A stretch of DNA of 64,000 nt from an uncultured Chloroflexia bacterium (GTDB taxonomy: Bacteria; Chloroflexota; Anaerolineae; Promineifilales; Promineifilaceae). The translations under genes and the position numbers were made by a program. Below are positions 52,792 to 64,000 of this stretch, piece after piece. The notes below the pieces were generated by a model, which saw only the letters and a list, made by a program, of their open reading frames with translations, did not search any database and was not told where the DNA came from. How positions within the stretch are numbered: the first letter of the stretch is position 1; each line of letters opens with the position of its first letter. The stretch is from NCBI GenBank assembly GCA_963786145.1, contig CAWAYB010000002.1, positions 226,268-290,267 of the forward strand. The letters run 5' to 3'.

Positions 52792-54024
52792 TTAATGCTC
52801 TTTGGTGCCAGTCGCATAGGGGAACAATGGCAGGTGCCGTACTCCGAGGGTAAAGGCCAGCAGTGCATATCCCGCAATACCCACACTCACCGCTACCTCT
52901 ACCAGTGAAGGAGAATAGCTGAGTACAATGATGTTCCCGAGGATGCCCGGTGACCAGCTTGGTGGCACAACCAGGCCAGAAAGGGTCACATTCCAGCGAT
53001 TCACGACCAGGCCAACTACGGCCAATCCCAGACCAAGAATTAGCGCCCGGTCATTGCGGCGCAGCGGCGGGTACAGAAAGATGAACGCCGGGATAATTGC
53101 GCCCAGAAATACCTCTACGAACCAGAAAGTGCGAGTATAAGGCGTCGTCAACTGCAGGCGTAGAAATGCATCGGCCGTGCCCGGCGTGTGGCTATAATAG
53201 GAAGTTGCCGCCCAATCCCACAGTTTTAAGTAGAGGTAAGCGAGCATCGCATAGCCGGAGAACCGGGCGATGCGCCACTTCAGCTCGTCACTAATCAGAT
53301 CTTTGTGGGTGAACTTTCCCGCCACAAGGGTGAGGAACAACGTCAGCGCAGTCCCCGCCGCAACGGCCGACATGATAAACATCACCGGCATGGAGGGTTT
53401 GTACCAGATCTCGCGCCCCGTCAACACCCCGTAGGTCGCCCCCAGAGATGATTGGTGCAGTAGGGACAGGGATAAGCCGACAACCGCGAAAGCCGGCGTC
53501 AGCCTGTGCAGGTAGTCACCAACAACCCGCAGCTGCGGCCAGCGATCAAAATACTTGCTGTCCAAGAGGATGGGTAAGAACTCCAGGAACAAGATCGTGG
53601 AATACAGGATGACACACCATGTGATCTCCCACAACACCGAATGGACGTTCCAATAGACCAGTGGATGCCAGAAGCGATCCGGCCGCCCAATGTCCATCGC
53701 CAGAGCAATCATTGCCGAGGTATAGCCAATGAAACCTACGAATACGGCCGCACGCGCGATCTCACGAAATTGGGTGAACTTGAACAGATAAGCAATGGCG
53801 GAAAAGGTAAACGCCCCGGCTCCCAGGCCGATGGCTGAAAGATCATGCGTAATCCACAGCCCCCAGGGAACCTGGTCGGTGAGGTTCGTAACCTGCAAGC
53901 CGTGCAGCAGGGTCTGGATTGCCCCCCAGATGCCAATCGCAATGAGGATAGCTAGCAGACCGTACCACATGGTGATCGGCGCAATGATTCTCCGTTCTTC
54001 GGCCGTTATTTGTCCAGCAGACAT
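52792..54024 (-). CDS. NrfD/PsrC-family polytopic membrane subunit (module 2)
   Basis: Start at MSAGQI (ATG at 54024, behind GGAGGAAG, 1 nt after the upstream stop). LQVTNLTDQVPWGLWITHDLSAIGLGAGAF...DIGRPDRFWH is paralogous to module 1. Confidence 0.85.
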   Translation of the reverse strand: MSAGQITAEERRIIAPITMWYGLLAILIAIGIWGAIQTLLHGLQVTNLTDQVPWGLWITHDLSAIGLGAGAFTFSAIAYLFKFTQFREIARAAVFVGFIGYTSAMIALAMDIGRPDRFWHPLVYWNVHSVLWEITWCVILYSTILFLEFLPILLDSKYFDRWPQLRVVGDYLHRLTPAFAVVGLSLSLLHQSSLGATYGVLTGREIWYKPSMPVMFIMSAVAAGTALTLFLTLVAGKFTHKDLISDELKWRIARFSGYAMLAYLYLKLWDWAATSYYSHTPGTADAFLRLQLTTPYTRTFWFVEVFLGAIIPAFIFLYPPLRRNDRALILGLGLAVVGLVVNRWNVTLSGLVVPPSWSPGILGNIIVLSYSPSLVEVAVSVGIAGYALLAFTLGVRHLPLFPYATGTKEH

Positions 54025-54025
54025 A

Positions 54026-54850
54026 TCAGACTTCCTCCAACGCTGGCCGTACATAATGGACTTTGGGCTGCGTGCCAAAATCCTCGCGCAACACAAAGGT
54101 GTCGTTATCTTCCAGGAAGCGCGAAATCGGGCTTTCCACATCGTTAAAGTCCCCAAAAACGCGCGCGCCGACCGGGCAGATGTTGACGCAAGCCGGTGTT
54201 ACCTGTGGATCGACCCCAGGCTTGAGGCCGTACTCCACAGCCCGGTCAATACGCTGCACGCAAAAGGTACATTTTTCAACCACACCACGCGGCCGCCGTT
54301 CCACTTCGGGCGTGCCCCAGGTCGGAACATATTCGTTTTCTTCTGTGCTTTGCTTCCAGTTAAAACGGCGTACGTCGTATGGGCAGGCAACCTCGCAATA
54401 GCGGCAGCCGATGCAGCGATCATAGTCCATCGCCACCAGCCCGTCTTCGCGCACCCAGGTTGCACCTACGGGGCACACTTTGACACACGGCGCTTCCTGG
54501 CAGTGCAGACACGGCCGTGTCATGAAGAAATCTGTCGCGTTCTCCGTGCGCTCGTCAAACCCGACATTCCAGCGCATATCGTCTTCCGGCACATCATTGA
54601 CAGCCTGGCAAGCCCACAGGCAATATTGGCAGCCGATGCACTTGGACAAATCAATGCCCATATGCCATTGATTGGCCGAACTCGCCTCCGTCTCGCGTGA
54701 CAAACCCTCGATCGCCTCGGCCGACAACGGTCCGCCGGAGAAAAGCTGTGAGACAACCACGGCCGCGCCGGTCACCCCGGCGATCTTCAGAACATCGCGA
54801 CGGCTCAGAAGCGCGGTGCCATCCTTTTTCTCCCCATCACCTTTCGTCAT
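54026..54850 (-). CDS. Tat-exported 4x[4Fe-4S] ferredoxin subunit, NrfC/PsrB family (module 2)
   Basis: Twin-arginine signal LLSRRDVLKIAGVTGAAVV. Cys clusters CIGCQYCLWAC, CLHCQEAPCVKVCP, CIGCRYCEVACP and CTFCVQR...CVNICP. Confidence 0.9.
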   Translation of the reverse strand: MTKGDGEKKDGTALLSRRDVLKIAGVTGAAVVVSQLFSGGPLSAEAIEGLSRETEASSANQWHMGIDLSKCIGCQYCLWACQAVNDVPEDDMRWNVGFDERTENATDFFMTRPCLHCQEAPCVKVCPVGATWVREDGLVAMDYDRCIGCRYCEVACPYDVRRFNWKQSTEENEYVPTWGTPEVERRPRGVVEKCTFCVQRIDRAVEYGLKPGVDPQVTPACVNICPVGARVFGDFNDVESPISRFLEDNDTFVLREDFGTQPKVHYVRPALEEV

Positions 54851-55913
54851 CGTGCTCTTCCTCTTCTGCCGCGACCGCTTCGGCATCCGCTTCCTGGCGG
54901 CGGCTCCGGCTGTTGTTGGCTACAATCCAGGCGGTCGATCCTCCCAGGACGAGACCAATGAGGCCTCCCTGGAACAGCAGTGTGGCGTTCTGGCTGGCTA
55001 GCGCGGATTCCAGGGCTTGAATCTGCTGTTGAGGTGACAGGCCGGTTTCTTTTTCAATCTGTTCCACAACAGGCATGTCTTCACTCGCTGCAGCGCTTTC
55101 GTTGCTTACGCTTTGTACGGTGCTGGCCCCACCCTCGTATCCGGGCAAGGAAAAGCCGGCATGCAAGGCATCGGTATGGCAAGCCACACATGTCTTCGGC
55201 GTAATCGTAAAAGCATGCCCCGTGGGTACGATTCCATCCGCCGGGGGAGTCTCGGGTGGGATCACCAGCGCATGGCAATCAACACAGCCAATATCCTTCG
55301 TGTGATGCGTATCTTCCAGGTACGCATCCATGGATTCGCCATGACAATTAATACACATGTCATCCGGATTCTCGAACAGAGCCTGTTGGCTGTGCGGATC
55401 ATGGCAGGCCGAGCAGCCGATGGTTTCCGTGGCGTGCCCGGTAAGCCGCCATTCCCCCAGAGTCGTGGTGTGGCACGTGCCGCAGTACTCGGTATCGGCC
55501 AGGATCGGCACCGGCGCCGACGGGTGGTCCGTCGCTACCTGGCCGTGGCAACCCTCACAGCTGATGCCTTCGGCGTCATATTCACCGGTGGACTGCACGT
55601 AGTTCGTGGTGTGGCAGGCCAGGCACTCTCCTGGCTCGCCCATACCCAGCCAACGCTCCTGAAACACCGGATCGCTGTACGCATTGGCGTGAGGGCTTGG
55701 CTCCCAATGACTGGAAACATCGAGGTGACAGTCCTGACACTCCTGCGTCGTATAGTACTCAACCTCGACAGCACCTTCGGGAACGGGTTCATCGTCCTGT
55801 CGTGAGTCCGCAGCGGCGGCAATCTGTACCGTTAACATCAGACTCACCAGCCCAACTGCAAGTCCTGCAAGAATGGCTCGTATGTAGGGCTGTAAGCGCG
55901 TTTTGTTACTCAT
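54837..55913 (-). CDS. Octahaem cytochrome c with C-terminal TM anchor (module 2, intact paralog)
   Basis: Start at MSNKTRL. Eight CxxCH motifs: CQDCH, CLACH, CEGCH, CGTCH, CSACH, CINCH, CVDCH, CVACH. C-terminal helix LLFQGGLIGLVLGGSTAWIVA and an acidic tail. Confidence 0.85.
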   Translation of the reverse strand: MSNKTRLQPYIRAILAGLAVGLVSLMLTVQIAAAADSRQDDEPVPEGAVEVEYYTTQECQDCHLDVSSHWEPSPHANAYSDPVFQERWLGMGEPGECLACHTTNYVQSTGEYDAEGISCEGCHGQVATDHPSAPVPILADTEYCGTCHTTTLGEWRLTGHATETIGCSACHDPHSQQALFENPDDMCINCHGESMDAYLEDTHHTKDIGCVDCHALVIPPETPPADGIVPTGHAFTITPKTCVACHTDALHAGFSLPGYEGGASTVQSVSNESAAASEDMPVVEQIEKETGLSPQQQIQALESALASQNATLLFQGGLIGLVLGGSTAWIVANNSRSRRQEADAEAVAAEEEEHDDER

Positions 55914-55988
55914 AACTCTCTCGCAGTGAGATACCTCTTGTGACACGCACCGGTATATCCAGGCGCCCGTCTCCTTGCCAAACTTTGC

Positions 55989-56933
55989 TCATGGTGAAGG
56001 AAGCGCATTCCGTTTCAGGGCCGCATTTGCTTCCTGCTGTGCAATCTCTCGGGCAATAAACTCCCAGAACGCTTCCTGAGCACCCGTTGCCGGCTTGCGC
56101 TTCTGGTAGCCGATGTGAATGTCGCGATAGATGTCGAGGCCACGGACGTTCACATGAGCTACACGGCCGTCGACCAACCTGGACACCACAATTTGAGAGA
56201 CGAAGCCAACCCCCAAACCCTCCTTCACAGAGAGTGCAATTGCCTCCGAACTTCCCAGAATGAGCATGGTGTCTAGATCTTCGATGTCCAGGCCAACGCT
56301 GGTCAGCCCCCTGCGCACCGCTGATTCAGTTCCCGAGCCTTCTTCTCTGAAAATGAATTCAGCCTCCAACAGTTCCGCTGGCTCAATTTCACCCCGGTCT
56401 GCCCACGGGTGATCTGCCGGAGCAATGAGAATTACCGGGTCAATCGTGAACCGGCGCGTCTCAACCGAGTTGCAGATCATGAACGGCTCACTGACCATCG
56501 CGATATGAACCTCGCCATCACACAGCATTTCAAATGCTTGCCCCTGCGAAGTCACGTTACACGATACACGCACCAACGGGAATTGACGGTGAAAACTGGC
56601 CAACAGCTGTGGCAAGATATATTTGCCTGGTGTCGTACTGCACCCCACTAACAAATGCCCGTGCACTTCGCCTTCCAGAGATTTCATCGTTTCCACAATT
56701 TGCACCGATCGCTCCACCATATCGCGCGCCAGGGGTAGCAGTGCCATTCCTGCTTCGGTCAGTTCCATATGCCGGCCCGAACGGTTAAACAGAGTCTGCC
56801 CGAGATTGAGCTCGAGAGACTGGATGTGCTGGCTTACGCTGGGCTGACTCATATGGAGCAGGCGCGCTGCCTGCGTGAAATTCAAGGTTTCCGCGGCGAC
56901 AAGAAACACATTAAGCTGGTGGGTATCTAACAT
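55989..56933 (-). CDS. LysR-family transcriptional regulator
   Basis: Start at MLDTHQLNVFLVAAETLNFTQAARLLHMSQPSVSQHIQSLE (classic LysR HTH), followed by a substrate-binding domain. Confidence 0.85.
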   Translation of the reverse strand: MLDTHQLNVFLVAAETLNFTQAARLLHMSQPSVSQHIQSLELNLGQTLFNRSGRHMELTEAGMALLPLARDMVERSVQIVETMKSLEGEVHGHLLVGCSTTPGKYILPQLLASFHRQFPLVRVSCNVTSQGQAFEMLCDGEVHIAMVSEPFMICNSVETRRFTIDPVILIAPADHPWADRGEIEPAELLEAEFIFREEGSGTESAVRRGLTSVGLDIEDLDTMLILGSSEAIALSVKEGLGVGFVSQIVVSRLVDGRVAHVNVRGLDIYRDIHIGYQKRKPATGAQEAFWEFIAREIAQQEANAALKRNALPSP

Positions 56934-57062
56934 GGTCGACCTCTTGTTTGTGAATATTGTAACAAAATCTATTATCAACTCAATAGTCTAGGTATCAAGT
57001 TTAATTGCTTTTCCTTATGGAGACCAAGAAGCAAAAGCTATAAGTAAAACCTTGTTTTGTAA

Positions 57063-57109
57063 TTGATTTGACTATTGATTTGGTTATACTTTTAGTGAAA
57101 TATTTCACT
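57063..57109 (+). promoter_or_regulatory. Candidate promoter and operator of the dodecahaem/rhodanese operon
   Basis: TTGATT (57063-57068), a 16-nt spacer, then TATACT (57085-57090). A perfect 16-bp palindrome AGTGAAATATTTCACT follows at 57094-57109. A tandem ATTGATTTG-ACT-ATTGATTTG overlaps the -35. Confidence 0.35.
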
Positions 57110-57169
57110 GGCGGTGCAGAATTTTGTGGTGGTCGCCCCGCTAGTCTCGATGGAAGTAAGGAGAGCACA

Positions 57170-58735
57170 TTGAAGCGAATATCTAGAAATCAGGGGGGGC
57201 TCTCTCGCTTGGCCCTCTGCTGCGGGGTGTTTGCCCTGGCGTGGCTGGCAGCTGGCTGCAGGGGCACAGGATCTGCGCCGGACACAGCCGTCGCCGGCGC
57301 CCCTCTGCTCGAACCAACGGCCGCCGGCGCCACGGCCACCAGGGAAGCAACGCCGGAACCAAAACCCACGGCCATGATTGCCGCCGCAGGCCCAGATACC
57401 TGCACTGACTGCCACACCGACAAGGACCTTCTGATTGATACTGCTGATCCGGTGGAGGAGGTAGTGAGCGAAAACGAAGGCGAAGGTTGAGGTGGTGAGG
57501 TGGCTCCGTTGGAGCCATGGGAAAAAGTACTCGTAGACGGCGAACTCTATCCGCCAACCGTTCATGGCCAGATCCCCTGCGCCGACTGCCATGCCGGCGA
57601 CCAAACAGCGACAGACAAGGCCGTTGCCCACGAAGGGTTAGTCGACAACCCCAGCAACGACCCCGACGCAACCTGTGGCGAGTGTCACCCTAACGTCGTG
57701 GCGATGAATGAATACAGCCTGCATACGAGCCTGCAGGGCTATTGGACCGTGCTCGATCAACGGGTCATACCTGAAGATCACGAGCAAGTCGAAACGATGT
57801 TCGGCAACCACTGCAACTCCTGCCATTCCAGTTGTGGCGAATGCCATGTCAGCCAACCCAATCTTGTCGGCGGTGGCCTGATCGAAGGACACCTCTTCAA
57901 TGAAACGCCTTCCATGACCCGTAACTGCACTGCCTGCCACGGCAGCCGCGTGGGCAACGAATACCTTGGCAAGCACGAAGATCTGCGCCCGGACGTTCAT
58001 TTCCGCCAGGGGCGCATGAGCTGCGTTGACTGCCACTCCGGCCATGAAATGCACGGTCAACCTGCCAATTGCGAGGAATGCCATACAGGTCCGGAAGCGC
58101 AAAGCGTGCCCCCCGCCGATCACCGTTACAGCGGCGTTCAGTCGCCACGCTGTGAAACATGCCATGTTCAGGTTGCTCTTGGTGACGATGGCATCGAGAT
58201 GCACGAGCAGCACTCCGGTGATTTATCTTGCCAGGTGTGCCATTCCATCGCCTATACCAGCTGTGACGGCTGCCACGTAGCCATCAGCGAGACCACTGGC
58301 AATGCGTTCTACGCCACGGACGGTTCCTACTTAGACTTCAAGATCGGCAAGAACCCGCTGCGCAGTTTTGACCGGCCGTATGAATATGTCACACTGCGCC
58401 ACGTCCCGGTTTCCACGGATGCCTTCGACTTCTACGGTGAAGCGCTGCAGAAGAATTTCGACGCGCTGCCGACGTGGACCTACACCACTCCGCATAACAT
58501 TCAACTCGAGACACCGCAGACGGAAAGCTGCGAAGCGTGCCACGAGAATCCTGATCTGTTCCTCACGGCCGATAAAGTGGCCGAGAACGAGCTGCAGGCC
58601 AACCTGCCCGTCATCGTCGAAAGGATCCCACCGCAAACTTTGCCAGAGGTCAGCATCGAACAATTGCTGGCCGATCCGACCACAGATATCCCTCCCGCCG
58701 AGGGTGATAGTGCTCCCGCGGAGAGTTCAAATTAG
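57170..58735 (+). CDS. Dodecahaem cytochrome c lipoprotein containing one in-frame TGA (57488-57490): selenocysteine recoding candidate, or a nonsense mutation
   Basis: TTG at 57170 follows AAGGAG; lipobox LAAGC. One CxxCH (CTDCH) lies before the TGA. After it, 11 CxxCH continue in the same frame (ORF 57500..58735), and that part has no signal peptide of its own. Confidence 0.65.
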
Positions 58736-58764
58736 GGTAAGCATACCCATTGAGGAGAAATGCA

Positions 58765-61428
58765 ATGAGAAAGTCTACTTTGTTCACGTTCATTCTGCTG
58801 TTGGGGCTGCTTCTTGCAGCCTGTGGCGGCTCCGCCGCCACAGCGCCGGATGCGGCTGCACCTGCGGCCACGGCCGTTGCGGAAGTTGTCGAAGAAGCTG
58901 TCGCTGAAGCAGAACCCGTCGTAGAAGAACCAGTAGTCGAGGAACCGGCGGCCGAGCCGGAAGCCGAAATGCCCGCCGAGACAGGCGCCGCTGATCTGGA
59001 TACCGCCTATGCAGCCTTCCTGGGCGGGATGGAAGCCTATAACACCATCGGCATTGACGAAGTCAACGAAATGATCGCCGAGGGCAACGCCCCCTTCTTG
59101 CTGGACGTCCGCGAACCCGGCGAACTGACCGAGAACGGCTGGATCGAAGGCGCGGTCAATATCCCGCTGCGTGAAGTCGCTAACAGCATCGCCTATTTGC
59201 CCAGCTTTGACACCCCCATTGTGAGCTATTGCGGCAGCGGTTGGCGCTGCACCATCGCCCTGACCGCGCTCGAAGCTCTGGGTTGGCAGGACGTGAAGGG
59301 TCTCAAAGGCGGCAGCTTCGGTGGCTGGGTGGAAGCCGGCTACCCGATCGCCGAAGGCGAAATCCCCACGCTCGTCGAACTCAACGCCGCCGAACCTGAT
59401 CCGGCTCTCCTAGCTGCTATGCAAGAAATGCTCAGCGAGGTACCGGAGGGCTTCGGCGTCATCACTGACGAACAGCTCGATACAGAGCTGGTAGAAAACC
59501 CTGATCTGATAGTCATCGACGTGCGGACCCCCGCAGAGGTCGAGGAGCAGGGCTATATGGACGCGCCCAATCTGCTGTTCATTCCTCTGGAAGAGTTTGT
59601 CGCCAGCCAGGATATGTGGCCCGCGGAAAAAGACGCGCCCATCGTGGTCTACTGTGGCAGCGGCCACCGTTCCACCATCGCCATGAGCATCCTCTGGTCC
59701 TATGGCTATACCGACGTACGCAGCCTCAAAGGTGGCTTTAGCGAATGGGCCGCCGCCGGCTACCCGTCCGTGGACGTTCCCGAAACGGCCGTGGGTGAAG
59801 GCAGCCCGCTGAATCCAGGTTTTGTCACATTCCTTGCGGGCATGGAAGCCTACAACACAATTGGTCTGGAAGACGTGAGCCTGGCACTTGCCGAAGACCC
59901 ACCCCCCTTCCTGCTTGACGTTCGTGAACCGGGCGAAATCGAAGAAAACGGTTATATCGAAGGCGCGGTCAACATTCCCCTGCGTCAGGTTGCCGACAAC
60001 ATCGCCTACCTGCCCAGCTTTGACACCCCCATTGTCAGCTACTGCGGCAGCGGTTGGCGCTGCACTATTGCCCTTACCATTCTTGAAGGCATGGGCTGGG
60101 AGAATGTGACCGGCCTTAAGGGCGGCAGCTTCGGTGGCTGGGTTGACGAAGGATACCCGGTGGCCGAAGGCCTGCCCCTGGAGCCAATGGAATTGAACGC
60201 GGCCGATCCCGATCCGGTACTCGTCGCCGCTGCCCAGGAAACGCTGAGCAACGTGCCCGACGGCTTCGGCGTCATTACCGTCGATGATCTCAACACTGCC
60301 ATTGTGGAAAACCCGGACTTGATCCTGATCGATGTGCGCACCCAGGAAGAAGTAGAGAAGAATGGCTATATCGATGCGCCAAATGTTCTCTTCATCCCTC
60401 TGGAGGAGTTCATTGCCGACCAGGACATGTGGCCCGCCGACAAAGACGCGCCGATCGTGACCTACTGTGGCAGCGGCCATCGCTCCACGATTGCCATGAC
60501 CATCCTCTGGGCCAACGGCTACAGCGACGTACGGAGCATGAAAGGCGGGTTCAACGAATGGACCGCCGCAGGCTATGCCACAGTGGGAGCGCCTGAAGCC
60601 GGGGAGACCGAGACAGCTTCTGCCCCCGTCGATCTGGACGCCGCCTTCGCCACTTTCCTGGCCGATATGGAAGTGTATAACACGATTGGCCTGGAAGATC
60701 TGAACCTGGCCCTGATCGAAGACCCGCCGCCGTTCCTGCTTGATGTGCGCGAGCCAGCGGAACTGGAAGAAAACGGGTACATCGAAGGCGCGGTCAACAT
60801 TCCATTACGTGAGGTTGCCGACAATATCGCTTACTTGCCCAGCTTTGATACGCCCATCGTAAGTTACTGTGGCAGCGGCTGGCGCTGCACCATCGCCCTT
60901 ACAGCCCTCGAAGCGATGGGTTGGCAGGATGTTAAGGGTCTGAAGGGCGGCAGCTTCGGCGGCTGGGTCGAAGAAGGGTACCCCTTCGTGGAAGGCCTGC
61001 CGTTGGAGCCGGTTGAACTGAATGCGGCCGATCCTGACCCGGCCCTTGTAGCCGCCATGCGGGAAATGCTGCAAAACGTTCCTGACGGTTTTGGTGGAAT
61101 TTCCGCCGATGATCTGAATCTGGCCATCATCGAAAACCCTGACTTGATCGTAATCGATGTGCGCACCGATGAGGAAGTGGCCGAAGACGGCATCATCGAA
61201 GCCGAAAACTGGATTCACATTCCTTTGGAATCCTTCATCGAGGAGATGGACCAATGGCCGGCTGACAAAGATGCTTCTATCGTCATCTATTGTGGCAGCG
61301 GACATCGTTCCACGATCGCCATGAGTATCCTATGGTCCTACGGCTACACGGATGTGAGCAGCCTGAAGGGTGGTTTCAGCGCCTGGGAAGCCGCCAGCTA
61401 CCCCGTTGCTGAATTCGCAGCTCCGTAA
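58765..61428 (+). CDS. Lipoprotein with six rhodanese domains (three tandem two-domain units)
   Basis: ATG at 58765 follows GAGGAG; lipobox LLAAC. Active-site loops CGSGWRC (x3) alternate with CGSGHRS (x3). Confidence 0.85.
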   Translation: MRKSTLFTFILLLGLLLAACGGSAATAPDAAAPAATAVAEVVEEAVAEAEPVVEEPVVEEPAAEPEAEMPAETGAADLDTAYAAFLGGMEAYNTIGIDEVNEMIAEGNAPFLLDVREPGELTENGWIEGAVNIPLREVANSIAYLPSFDTPIVSYCGSGWRCTIALTALEALGWQDVKGLKGGSFGGWVEAGYPIAEGEIPTLVELNAAEPDPALLAAMQEMLSEVPEGFGVITDEQLDTELVENPDLIVIDVRTPAEVEEQGYMDAPNLLFIPLEEFVASQDMWPAEKDAPIVVYCGSGHRSTIAMSILWSYGYTDVRSLKGGFSEWAAAGYPSVDVPETAVGEGSPLNPGFVTFLAGMEAYNTIGLEDVSLALAEDPPPFLLDVREPGEIEENGYIEGAVNIPLRQVADNIAYLPSFDTPIVSYCGSGWRCTIALTILEGMGWENVTGLKGGSFGGWVDEGYPVAEGLPLEPMELNAADPDPVLVAAAQETLSNVPDGFGVITVDDLNTAIVENPDLILIDVRTQEEVEKNGYIDAPNVLFIPLEEFIADQDMWPADKDAPIVTYCGSGHRSTIAMTILWANGYSDVRSMKGGFNEWTAAGYATVGAPEAGETETASAPVDLDAAFATFLADMEVYNTIGLEDLNLALIEDPPPFLLDVREPAELEENGYIEGAVNIPLREVADNIAYLPSFDTPIVSYCGSGWRCTIALTALEAMGWQDVKGLKGGSFGGWVEEGYPFVEGLPLEPVELNAADPDPALVAAMREMLQNVPDGFGGISADDLNLAIIENPDLIVIDVRTDEEVAEDGIIEAENWIHIPLESFIEEMDQWPADKDASIVIYCGSGHRSTIAMSILWSYGYTDVSSLKGGFSAWEAASYPVAEFAAP
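58990..61428 (+). repeat. Tandem triplication (~815-bp unit) inside the rhodanese gene
   Basis: Units start near 58990, 59810 and 60628. The protein repeats align almost residue for residue (AYNTIG...FLLDVREPGE...NIPLR(E/Q)VA(N/D)(S/N)IAYLPSFDTPIVSYCGSGWRCTIALT...). Confidence 0.85.
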
Positions 61429-61560: not shown

Positions 61561-61714
61561 TGGGGACAATGTAACAGCTATTTTCACCATGAAAATTCGC
61601 CCATCCTGATGGTGAGATCCCGCACCAAGTTTGTCAGAAACACAAGGATAGGAAAACACCCGTCACGGCCGACAGCCCCACAAATAGCGGCTGGCAAGTG
61701 GCAGGGAGGTTGGC

Positions 61715-64000
61715 TTGGAAATCGGTACGGTAAACAACATCGATATTGACGAGGAAATGCGCACATCGTACCTCGATTACGCCATGAGCGTCATCGTCGC
61801 GCGCGCGCTGCCCGATGCCCGCGATGGGCTTAAGCCGGTACACCGGCGCATTCTCTATGCCATGTACGACATGGGCATCCGTCACAATACTCCCCACCGC
61901 AAAAGCGCCCGTATTGTTGGTGAAGTGCTGGGCAAGTACCACCCCCATGGGGATACATCCGTCTATGACGCTATGGTGCGCATGGCCCAGGATTTCTCCA
62001 TGCGCTACATGCTGGTTGACGGTCAGGGAAACTTCGGCAGTATTGACGGCGACAGCGCCGCCGCTATGCGTTACACCGAAGCGCGGCTGGCCCGCATTTC
62101 CAATGAGCTGCTTGAAGACATAGACAAAGACACCGTCGATTGGGGAGCTAACTTCGATGACAGTCTGCAAGAGCCTGACCTGCTGCCTGCGCGCCTGCCC
62201 AATCTCCTGCTCAACGGCTCTTCGGGCATCGCCGTGGGTATGGCGACAAACATCCCGCCCCACAACCTTGCCGAAATCAGTGATGCCCTGATCTATCTAA
62301 TCGATCGGCAGGACGACGCTGACGAAGTTACTCTGGACGAGTTGATGGAGTTTGTCAAAGGCCCGGACTTTCCTACCGGCGGCATCGTGGTTGGCACCGA
62401 GGGGATTCGTAACGCCTTTGCCACCGGACGCGGCCGTATTATCATTCGCGCCGTAGCCACCATTGAAGAAAACCCGCGCCATCCCGGTCGCCAGCAGATC
62501 AACGTCACTGAGCTGCCCTTCCAGGTCAACAAGTCGCTGCTCATTGAACGCATCGCCGAACTGGTGAACAAGGGCGTCCTTTCCGATATATCGGACCTGC
62601 GCGACGCCTCCGACAGGCGTGGCATTTCCATCGTCATCGAGCTGAAACGCGGCACCCAACCCATGAAAGTGCTCAACCAGCTCTACAAACACACCAGCCT
62701 GCAAACCACCTTCGGCGTGCAGATGTTGGCCCTGGTTGACCGCCAACCGCGCCTGCTTTCCCTGAAACGCGCGCTGCAAATCCATATCGACCACCGCATA
62801 GAGGTTATTACCCGGCGCACTCGTTTCGAAATGGACAAAGCGCTGGCCAGACAACACATCCTGGAGGGCCTGCTCATCGCCCTGGATAATCTGGACGAAG
62901 TGATCAGGACCATTCGTGAATCCGAAAGTGTTGATGATGCGCGCGCCAGCCTGATGGCCGATTTCAACCTCAGTGAACTGCAAGCAAACGCCATCCTCGA
63001 TACCCAGTTGCGCCGCCTTGCCGCCATGGAACGGCAGAAGATCGTAGATGAACATCGGGAGATTTCCGAGCATATTGTCTATCTCCGCAGCCTCCTTGCC
63101 GATCAAAAGCTGATTCTTGGCCTCATCAAAGAAGACTTGGCAGCGCTGAAAGATAGTTATGGCGATGCGCGCCGAACCGAAATCGCCGTTGGCATGGATG
63201 CAGACTTCAATATGGAAGACCTCATCCGTGACGAAGATGTGTTTATTTCTATTACCAGACGCGGCTATGTGAAACGCACTCCCGTCGCCGCCTATCGCAA
63301 ACAGGCACGGGGTGGGAAAGGTCTGATTGGCATGAGCACGCGCGGCGAGGATGAACTGGAGCACCTCTTCTCGGCGGGAACGCTGAACAGCATTCTCTTC
63401 TTCTCCGACTACGGTAAGGTCTATTCGATCAAGGCCTACGAAATTCCGGAAATGGACCGTACCGCCAAGGGCAACTCGCTCATGAACATCCTGCCCCTGA
63501 TGCCGGAGGAGAAGATCACGGCCGCGCTGCCCGTCCACAGCTTTGAAGACGCTCAGTATCTGACCATGATTACACGCAAAGGCAGGATCAAGCGCGTCGG
63601 CATCGAAGCATTCGAGAAAGTGCGCCCAAGCGGTCTGATAGCTCTTTCCCTGGATGATGATGACCGACTAGGTTGGGTAAAGTTGACCCATGGCGAACAG
63701 GATCTGATCATCGTCAGCGAACAGGGCAAAGGCATCCGCTTCAGCGAAGAAGATGTGCGCGAAATGGGGCGTGGAGCGGCCGGTGTGAACGCTATGCGCC
63801 TGGACACCTGGGATAATATCGCCGGGGCTGATGTGGTTGAGCCTGGTGACGACCTCTTCGTCATTACAGAAAAAGGCTATGGCAAGCGCACTGACCTTGA
63901 CGAATACCGCCAGCAAAATCGCTATGGCCAGGGTGTTCGCGCGATGATCCTTGATCCCCAGCGCACGGGCAAAATCGTCGGCGCGCGGGTTGTAGCCAGC
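61715..64000 (+). CDS. gyrA: DNA gyrase subunit A, N-terminal 762 codons (3' end outside the window)
   Basis: Not in the ORF track because there is no stop inside the window. My hand translation from TTG at 61715 (AGGGAGG lies 5 nt upstream) gives ...[36 protein letters not shown]...[26 protein letters not shown]. The frame stays open to 64000. Confidence 0.9.

Follow-up and report, generated by a model that had tools for sequence, protein, structure and literature searches.

The window analysed here is a 64,000-nt stretch of DNA from an uncultured Chloroflexia bacterium (assembly GCA_963786145.1, contig CAWAYB010000002.1), and the gene in question encodes a multihaem cytochrome c whose reading frame is interrupted by an in-frame TGA. 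Sequence comparison indicated that this UGA, codon 107 (57488–57490, + strand), is most likely decoded as selenocysteine (Sec). The reading is carried by conservation of the TGA, RNA-level constraint on a hairpin directly 3' of it, exchange of Sec and Cys at this position among homologs, the architecture of the protein, and a link to a neighbouring rhodanese gene. The TGA and the hairpin recur together in more than 70 Anaerolineae species, which apparently share an undescribed family of putative selenium-containing cytochromes. Literature searches on Chloroflexi selenoproteins and on Anaerolineae multihaem and rhodanese proteins returned no description of this family.

Results

A split reading frame encodes one exported dodecahaem cytochrome

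The frame from 57170 to 58738 (+) contains a single interruption, the TGA at 57488–57490, and the two open reading frames (ORFs) reported by the initial annotation indeed lie in the same frame and are split only by this codon. The peptide across the junction reads ...VVSENEGEG-TGA-GGEVAPLEPWEK..., and the immediate surroundings of the codon are ...DLLIDTADPVEEVVSENEGEG-TGA-GGEVAPLEPWEKV..., which places the proposed selenocysteine U107 in the motif G-x-G-U-G-G. The upstream ORF comprises 106 codons from a TTG start at 57170 (the ORF listing gives an earlier TTG at 57068), and a Shine-Dalgarno-like AAGGAGAG (57158–57165, +), read from the sequence, precedes this start. It opens with the lipoprotein signal peptide MKRISRNQGGLSRLALCCGVFALAWLAAGC (57170–57259, +), which ends in the lipobox LAAG-C (Cys codon 57257–57259), and continues through a low-complexity linker to the first haem-binding motif, CTDCH (57401–57415, +), the sole CxxCH 5' of the TGA. 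The downstream part, up to the stop codon at 58736–58738, carries 11 CxxCH motifs and lacks a signal peptide. Translation thus bore out the earlier description of an upstream part with the only export signal and one CxxCH, and of a signal-less downstream part with the other 11.

The complete read-through coding sequence (57170–58738, +) specifies 521 residues including U107, with 12 CxxCH motifs, and matches the Pfam families Cytochrome_C7 (PF14522, 48.7 bits, cutoff 24.8) and Cytochrom_c3_2 (PF14537, 44.4 bits, cutoff 25) above their gathering scores. Full-length homologs exist as single ORFs, in agreement with the earlier argument that the two halves must be joined. The stretch 57170–58738 is one gene for an exported, lipid-anchored 12-haem cytochrome c, and the 411-residue downstream ORF, which starts at a GTG within the hairpin, is an annotation artefact.

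This layout is general in the family. One CxxCH motif 5' and usually 11 motifs 3' of the TGA were found in nearly all of 79 parsed sequences, and a lipobox-like motif 5' of the TGA in about 70 of them. A C-terminal extension adds one or two CxxCH motifs in nine Sec-type orthologs (L024, L053, L065, L070, L071, L075–L077 and L080), bringing the total to 13–14 haems, and the downstream part of another (L051) is 1,021 residues long, possibly by fusion with the next gene. All Cys residues of the mature cytochrome sit in CxxCH motifs, and Sec would therefore be its only side chain of the thiol or selenol type. The family also has 12 invariant His residues outside the motifs for its 12 haems; going by this count, Sec need not be a distal haem ligand, although it may be one.

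An AlphaFold2 model of a Cys-type homolog (P0118) reached a pLDDT of 80 and a pTM of 0.74, with a pLDDT below 50 in the Sec/Cys loop. A Foldseek search of the model against the PDB gave no match at E ≤ 0.001. Among solved chains, only 28pb_A, a 278-residue 'Cytochrome c', marginally matched the family profile (E = 1.8e-4), in the region of haems 2–3.

The TGA codon is conserved across Anaerolineae orthologs

When the fused sequence was used as a protein query, more than 1,500 relatives came up, of which the best 120 were inspected; a genome scan yielded at least 581 relatives. DNA was then compared for 80 orthologous loci, each from a different species, in metagenome-assembled genomes of Anaerolineae, Ardenticatenaceae, Promineifilaceae and Candidatus Leptofilum. 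The site was covered by 79 sequences (78 loci and the window), and six further loci were added for full-length forms, giving 86 sites.

About 100 of the best 120 protein homologs have lengths of 383–440 residues and start with MAPLEPWEK or just beyond it; gene callers have cut these proteins at the same place. The Candidatus Leptofilum copy (P0022), for example, is recorded in RefSeq as a 401-residue "hypothetical protein". Eighteen homologs are full length and have Cys (3), Arg (4), Leu (3), Trp (3), Met (2), His, Ser or Ile in the TGA column.

At the DNA level, 75 of the 79 sequences carry TGA at exactly this codon, in frame, within the shared motif E-(N/S)-(E/K/S)-G-(E/V/A)-G-TGA-G-G-(E/D/S)-V-A-P-L-E-P-W-E-K. 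The proteins with TGA share 51–94% identity (median 61%). With the added loci, the count became 76 TGA and 10 non-TGA sites. A check proposed in the initial annotation, whether orthologs carry TGA or Cys at this position, came out in favour of Sec: besides the 76 TGA codons, three Cys codons were found (TGT, TGC and TGC, at loci L082–L084), and the remaining seven sites have TGG (three), CGA, TTA, ATG or TTT. Eight of the 10 non-TGA codons are one base away from TGA, as would be expected if an ancestral TGA had been lost repeatedly; ATG and TTT belong to two diverged genes. The full-length Cys homologs P0087, P0092 and P0118 (TGC, TGC and TGT, respectively) retain the surrounding motif as G-C-G-G-E.

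A short hairpin 3' of the TGA is constrained at the RNA level

The initial annotation had drawn an 8-bp hairpin, GUGGCUCC-GUU-GGAGCCAU (57500–57518, +), with seven Watson–Crick pairs and one G·U pair. This hairpin is present as drawn, although only its inner part is conserved and its two outer pairs lack comparative support. The conserved core is a 6-bp stem, GGCUCC/GGAGCC, with the apical loop GUU (57508–57510); it spans 57502–57516 (+) and was identified by zero entropy at synonymous positions together with a stem predicted by RNAalifold. The stem begins 11 nt from the UGA, and the loop G lies 21 nt from the U of the UGA. Hairpin positions are numbered below with the T of TGA as +1.

Among 74 TGA sequences, third codon positions +15, +18, +21, +24 and +27 are invariant, as is +22, where the Leu codon begins. 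Entropy at the third positions around them (+6, +9, +12, +30, +36, +42, +45 and +48) amounted to 1.1–1.95 bits. As an internal control, codon entropy was calculated for 132 columns with a degenerate amino acid conserved to at least 95% in 72 Sec-type orthologs. Zero entropy was found in exactly five of these columns, and the five are the consecutive hairpin codons GTG GCT CCG TTG GAG. The median over the control columns was 1.0 bit, and the lowest value after the hairpin codons was 0.42.

RNAalifold returned one helix for the alignment, formed by the pairs G15-C29, G16-C28, C17-G27, U18-A26, C19-G25 and C20-G24, with G21, U22 and U23 in the loop. For pair 16/28, 68 sequences have G-C, three have C-G and one has G-U. 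The flip to C-G swaps two amino acids (VAPLEPW to VPPLEAW), and it arose independently at least twice, in L012, whose closest relatives (86–88% identity) keep G-C, and in the L020/L022 clade. Moreover, the proposed structure pairs in 94% of cells, compared with 38–50% for controls in slid registers. Of the two outer pairs, U14-A30, which adjoins the core, is retained in only 37 of 72 distinct sequences. The outermost G·U pair is invariant but uninformative on structure, because the Val and Trp codons fix both of its bases.

The hairpin was also tied to the TGA itself. It is intact in all 76 TGA genes and in one of the 10 non-TGA genes (Fisher p = 2e-11, a value that overstates independence since the sequences are related). 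The single non-TGA gene with an intact hairpin is L082 (TGT), which suggests a recent codon change. The loop G is lost in L084 (TGC), the first stem pair is lost in L054 (TGG) and L086 (TTA), and both stem and peptide have diverged in L083, L034, L057, L079, L085 and L087. The 15-nt core has a folding energy of −9.1 kcal/mol, and a match to the exact 15-mer with at most two mismatches is expected by chance 0.35 times per 64 kb. Taken together, the comparative data indicate that the hairpin is selected as RNA beyond its coding role, and only where the TGA is present; the support for this is evolutionary rather than thermodynamic.

Bacterial Sec insertion sequences (SECIS) have been described as stems of 6–8 bp with a conserved loop G about 20 nt 3' of the UGA, and SelB binds them directly through its winged-helix domains (PMC4605307). 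The earlier suggestion that the hairpin fits this published description held for the conserved core, which has a 6-bp stem and a loop with G followed by U, the G at +21; the description used is a general one (PMC4605307).

The Sec/Cys-type genes are paired with a multi-rhodanese gene

A gene for a six-rhodanese lipoprotein (58765–61428, +; lipobox LLAAC) starts 27 nt after the cytochrome gene and is probably co-transcribed with it. Pfam Rhodanese matched it in six stretches (E = 6.8e-96), and NCBIfam rhodanese models matched as well. Its summed score over the six repeats (184.8 bits) exceeds the cutoff (115) of NF041203, 'rhodanese-related (seleno)protein'. All of its active-site loops have Cys, in the alternating forms CGSGWR and CGSGHR, and there is no in-frame TGA. 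It consists of three near-identical two-domain units, which suggests a recent internal triplication.

A rhodanese gene lies near the cytochrome gene in 74 of the 80 loci. Where the flank could be evaluated, it follows each of the 71 TGA genes and the single Cys-type gene; that is, 72 of 72 genes of the Sec or Cys type as against none of six of the W, F, R or L type (p = 4e-9, which again overstates the independence of related sequences). The rhodanese context, mentioned in the initial annotation as a setting for sulfur or selenium handling, thus turned out to be stronger than claimed, as a strict co-occurrence with the Sec/Cys forms. A 7.6-kb contig (L085) holds both situations side by side: its TGA paralog adjoins a rhodanese gene, whereas its CGA paralog lacks one and adjoins a LysR gene, after which comes a multihaem cytochrome gene like that of the quinone module. 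L054, L057, L079, L085 (+ strand copy), L086 and L087, where Trp, Phe, Arg or Leu stands in place of Sec, have jointly lost the hairpin, the rhodanese gene and the G-U-G-G motif, and they seem to be a separate paralog or functional class independent of Sec. The pairing of Sec/Cys forms with the rhodanese points to sulfane-sulfur or selenium chemistry.

Divergently encoded quinone module and other neighbouring genes

On the other side of the cytochrome gene, a divergent LysR-family regulator (55989–56978, −; Pfam HTH_1 and LysR_substrate) adjoins it in 70 of the 80 loci. The next genes form a quinone-module operon. It includes a multihaem cytochrome c (54837–55946, −; Pfam and NCBIfam matches; syntenic in 55 of 80 loci), a 4Fe-4S ferredoxin-type subunit resembling DsrO, QrcC and NrfC (54026–54886, −; NCBIfam DsrO 205.9 bits, cutoff 200, and Pfam Fer4 families; syntenic in 59 of 80) and an NrfD/PsrC-type membrane subunit, predicted to interact with quinone and similar to QrcD and HmcC (52792–54156, −; Pfam NrfD E = 2e-33, NCBIfam QrcD-like below cutoff; syntenic in 59 of 80).

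Beyond the NrfD module, the segment 46236–52514 (−) encodes multihaem cytochromes of 745, 557 and 430 residues with MtrC/MtrF-like domain matches and a cytochrome b561-type membrane protein. Near the N-terminus of the 430-residue cytochrome there is a collagen-like Gly-X-Y repeat (PF01391, E = 3e-6). This cytochrome cluster is syntenic in only 3–5 of the 80 loci. Beyond the rhodanese gene, an ORF with the sequence motifs of gyrA (DNA gyrase subunit A) runs from 61688 to 64000 (+) and extends past the end of the window; the long ORFs on the opposite strand at 61634–62263 and 62297–63538 are antisense artefacts of gyrA.

Searches for Sec machinery and further selenoproteins

The window and about 1 Mb of flanking sequence from the 80 loci (at most 6 kb on each side) yielded no selA, selB or selD and no gene for tRNA-Sec (selC). 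ARAGORN reported no tRNA-Sec in the window or the 80 loci, stretches in which this gene is not expected, and the window contains no tRNA gene. In addition, tblastn with SelA and SelB of E. coli (NC_000913.3) and with SelD gave no match in the window or the 80 loci. As background rather than a test of this genome, Chloroflexi include Sec decoders with a tRNA-Sec of the 8/4 type (PMC5389517), and three selenoprotein families were known from the phylum by 2006 (PMC1794560). A screen of the window and the approximately 1 Mb of flanks for further conserved in-frame TGAs returned only off-frame or antisense artefacts and junctions of adjacent genes, and no second selenoprotein.

Discussion

Evidence against Sec decoding and alternative explanations

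Several of the observations weigh against decoding of the UGA as Sec, or limit what can be drawn from the hairpin and the protein model. The Sec machinery was missing from the DNA searched, as described above. In a covariance-model check of the hairpin, proposed in the initial annotation, no Rfam SECIS family recognised it, and no RNA family of any kind matched either the whole window at gathering thresholds or the segment 57400–57620 at E ≤ 10. By comparison with the families that are curated, this may mean that the hairpin lies outside them, not that it is incapable of SECIS function. The short stem of 6 bp with a triloop is thermodynamically unexceptional (a 71-nt fold gave z = −0.29 against shuffles). 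Furthermore, covariation is confined to one pair, and the argument is mostly one of invariance, part of which perhaps reflects relatedness. In paralogs and variants, R, L, W, M, H, S, I or F is found in place of Sec, so the residue is dispensable for the fold. With the Sec loop modelled at a pLDDT below 50 and 12 invariant His residues outside the motifs, Sec was not placeable beside a particular haem. Finally, the function proposed below rests on analogy.

Three of these points (the absence of Sec machinery from the window and the 80 loci, the lack of an Rfam SECIS match, and the range of residues at the position in relatives, W, R, L and C among them) would also agree with a scenario in which the hairpin acted independently of SelB, stimulating near-cognate decoding of the UGA by, for example, tRNA-Trp, tRNA-Cys or tRNA-Arg and producing a regulated mixture of short and full-length protein that contains no selenium. 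We consider such programmed read-through improbable, as the size, spacing and G/U loop of the hairpin are those of a bacterial SECIS. Moreover, the Cys forms keep both the motif, as G-C-G-G, and the rhodanese partner, whereas forms with other residues lose motif, hairpin and partner; this is the pattern expected of a catalytic Sec/Cys and not of a neutral linker residue. Hairpin-stimulated UGA read-through kept over such evolutionary distances is not known as an established mechanism in bacteria. Even less probable are two real genes linked by translational coupling, one for a 106-residue monohaem lipoprotein and a separate one for a 411-residue 11-haem protein starting at GTG 57500. Gene callers and RefSeq annotate the locus in this way in almost all genomes, and a GAGG (from TGA-GG) 7 nt before the GTG could serve as a ribosome-binding site, which accounts for the consistency with which gene callers start the 411-residue ORF there. 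The GAGG arises within 57489–57502 from the TGA and the conserved Gly codons, and re-initiation after termination would be possible in principle. The downstream product, however, would have no export signal, and covalent attachment of haem to CxxCH occurs outside the cytoplasmic membrane. In addition, GTG 57500 is buried within the conserved hairpin, the frame across the junction is kept in all 76 TGA genes without any variation in spacer, and homologs with a sense codon at the site are single ORFs.

Two further explanations dispense with recoding altogether. The TGA could stem from a base-call or assembly error or from an inactivating mutation in a pseudogene, and the frameshifts that the initial annotation claimed elsewhere in the window would fit a sequence of that kind. 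The identical TGA codon nevertheless recurs in 75 further assemblies, which are independent of one another and come from many studies and sequencing platforms; this upholds the earlier view that it is not a read error, and both flanks of the codon are under strong purifying selection. Alternatively, TGA could encode Trp or Gly throughout the genome, as the TGG found at the site in at least three relatives might suggest. However, TGA ends 12 of the 39 long ORFs in the window, the adjacent LysR gene among them, and no other credible in-frame TGA was seen in the window or the 80 loci; TGA is thus an ordinary stop in the window and the standard code applies. With an in-frame TGA conserved in diverse species and TGA serving as a normal stop, error, pseudogene and alternative code are practically excluded. 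Decoding as Sec, which the comparative data strongly support, is the reading followed below.

Proposed recoding and function

From the anatomy of the message, we infer a recoding route of the following kind. When the ribosome reaches the UGA, the 15-nt hairpin GGCUCC-GUU-GGAGCC would begin 11 nt further on, at the mRNA entrance, where SelB would contact its G/U loop through the winged-helix domains and bring Sec-tRNA(Sec) in competition with RF2. Termination instead would yield only the 106-residue monohaem lipoprotein. Dependence on SelB, actual insertion of selenium and the chemistry outlined next are likewise inferred.

Less certainly, and by analogy with known enzymes, a function can be proposed. 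Sec107 would act as the catalytic nucleophile from a flexible loop rich in glycine, G-x-G-U-G-G, which lies between haem 1 and the body of 11 haems. The six-rhodanese lipoprotein of the adjacent gene could donate sulfane sulfur to Sec107, in the form of persulfide or polysulfide, or perhaps selenium, and a Se–S adduct would result. This adduct would be reduced, or in the reverse direction oxidised, through the haem wire, which would exchange electrons with the quinone pool by way of the divergently encoded cytochrome/4Fe-4S/NrfD module. Candidate substrates are polysulfide, thiosulfate, tetrathionate or selenite.

On a broader view, which we put forward tentatively and regard as somewhat doubtful, the family may be a second independent class of multihaem selenoenzymes that is widespread in Anaerolineae. 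Such enzymes would combine a lone Sec without a partner Cys, carried on an N-terminal loop rich in glycine and supplied with sulfane sulfur (or selenium) by its own six-domain rhodanese lipoprotein, with a 12-haem wire to quinone through a Qrc/Hmc-like module and a minimal, invariant 15-nt SECIS that dictates the peptide VAPLEP. They could serve an unrecognised respiratory (or oxidative) pathway for polysulfide, sulfur or selenium in Chloroflexota of sediments and wastewater.

If the reading is right, the annotation of this locus is wrong in hundreds of Anaerolineae genomes, with one 12-haem selenoprotein now recorded as a small "hypothetical" lipoprotein and a signal-less "cytochrome c3 family protein". 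Anaerolineae, Ardenticatenaceae and Promineifilaceae abound in activated sludge and sediments; their sulfur and selenium metabolism is poorly understood, and the family would offer a way to approach it. The family also amounts to a natural experiment, in which the hairpin and the rhodanese accompany Sec-type genes, the rhodanese accompanies the only Cys-type gene whose flank is long enough, and neither accompanies types with other residues. Furthermore, the 15-nt SECIS would be a compact case of an RNA signal that fixes the codons and the amino acids of the peptide it overlaps.

Comparison with known systems

The minimal SECIS of E. coli fdhF is a 17-nt upper stem-loop that is required 11 nt from the UGA and has G23 and U24 in its loop. 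Like the SECIS elements of E. coli fdhF and Moorella fdhA, the cytochrome hairpin lies in the coding region directly 3' of the UGA and has a loop G followed by U; it shares the 11-nt spacing, with G21/U22 in place of G23/U24. Unlike bacterial SECIS elements, it is shorter (15 nt, with a triloop and without a bulged U), and it is invariant in sequence over very divergent species, not merely conserved in structure.

Extracytoplasmic sulfur redox chemistry at haem, with a chalcogen nucleophile, is known from TsdA and SoxAX, which have His/Cys-ligated haem, and in polysulfide respiration by Sud and Psr a rhodanese-type carrier hands sulfane sulfur to a respiratory reductase that is coupled to a quinone module of the NrfD/PsrC type. 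The likeness to these systems is one of logic only; no homology was shown, and the locus described here has neither a molybdopterin subunit nor a conserved Cys ligand.

Haem-related selenoprotein families include the octahaem tetrathionate reductase (TIGR04315) and the GSU2204-family CXXCH protein (NF041027) (PMC13188914). Both resemble the cytochrome in being CxxCH proteins with annotated Sec forms. Membership in either family was rejected, as neither model matched, and the cytochrome matched no NCBIfam selenoprotein model. Its sole NCBIfam matches fell far under cutoff (ExtM, 18.7 bits against 800; GSU2203 decahaem, 25.7 against 325).

The closest functional precedent is MccSep/ExtKL (GSU2937-2936) of Geobacter sulfurreducens, a five-haem periplasmic selenoprotein with polysulfide reductase activity (Mihara et al., Sci Adv 2026, PMC13510729; PDB 9WT8-9WTC; NCBIfam NF040886), in which Sec325 acts beside a His/Cys-ligated haem to reduce polysulfide (PMC13510729). 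Like the Anaerolineae cytochrome, it is an exported multihaem c-type cytochrome that was annotated as two ORFs at an in-frame UGA, with a SECIS-like hairpin just 3' of it. For both proteins, Sec- and Cys-type homologs are known and many homologs are recoverable only by reading through the UGA, and the MccSep gene cluster likewise includes a rhodanese-like lipoprotein, ExtH. The differences are equally clear. The Anaerolineae cytochrome has 12 CxxCH motifs and haems instead of five, and its Sec lies near the N-terminus in G-x-G-U-G-G, whereas that of MccSep lies in a D-G-U-P loop of a C-terminal Ig-like domain. The haem-ligating C239 of MccSep has no counterpart, since the Anaerolineae cytochrome has no conserved free Cys. 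Moreover, the Anaerolineae cytochrome is a lipoprotein of Chloroflexota, unlike MccSep, which is soluble in the periplasm of Desulfobacterota or Nitrospirota, and its rhodanese partner has six domains, which distinguishes it from the MccSep cluster. In profile searches, the family profile missed 9WT8 and 9WT9 at E ≤ 10 although both were in the library, and NF040886 gave no match at E ≤ 0.01, so that membership in MccSep/ExtKL was rejected. By these sequence comparisons, the two are similar in outline and do not belong to the same family.

If the present reading holds, Sec has been recruited into multihaem cytochromes at least twice, MccSep, published in 2026, being the only characterised case. 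The presence of a rhodanese-type carrier alongside both would suggest a general logic, in which a selenol nucleophile and a haem wire cooperate in the extracellular cleavage or formation of chalcogen–chalcogen bonds. Set against these systems, the recoding mechanism proposed for the Anaerolineae cytochrome is itself canonical; the apparent novelty lies in the protein family, in the strictness with which it is paired with a multi-rhodanese protein, and in a minimal SECIS frozen in sequence.

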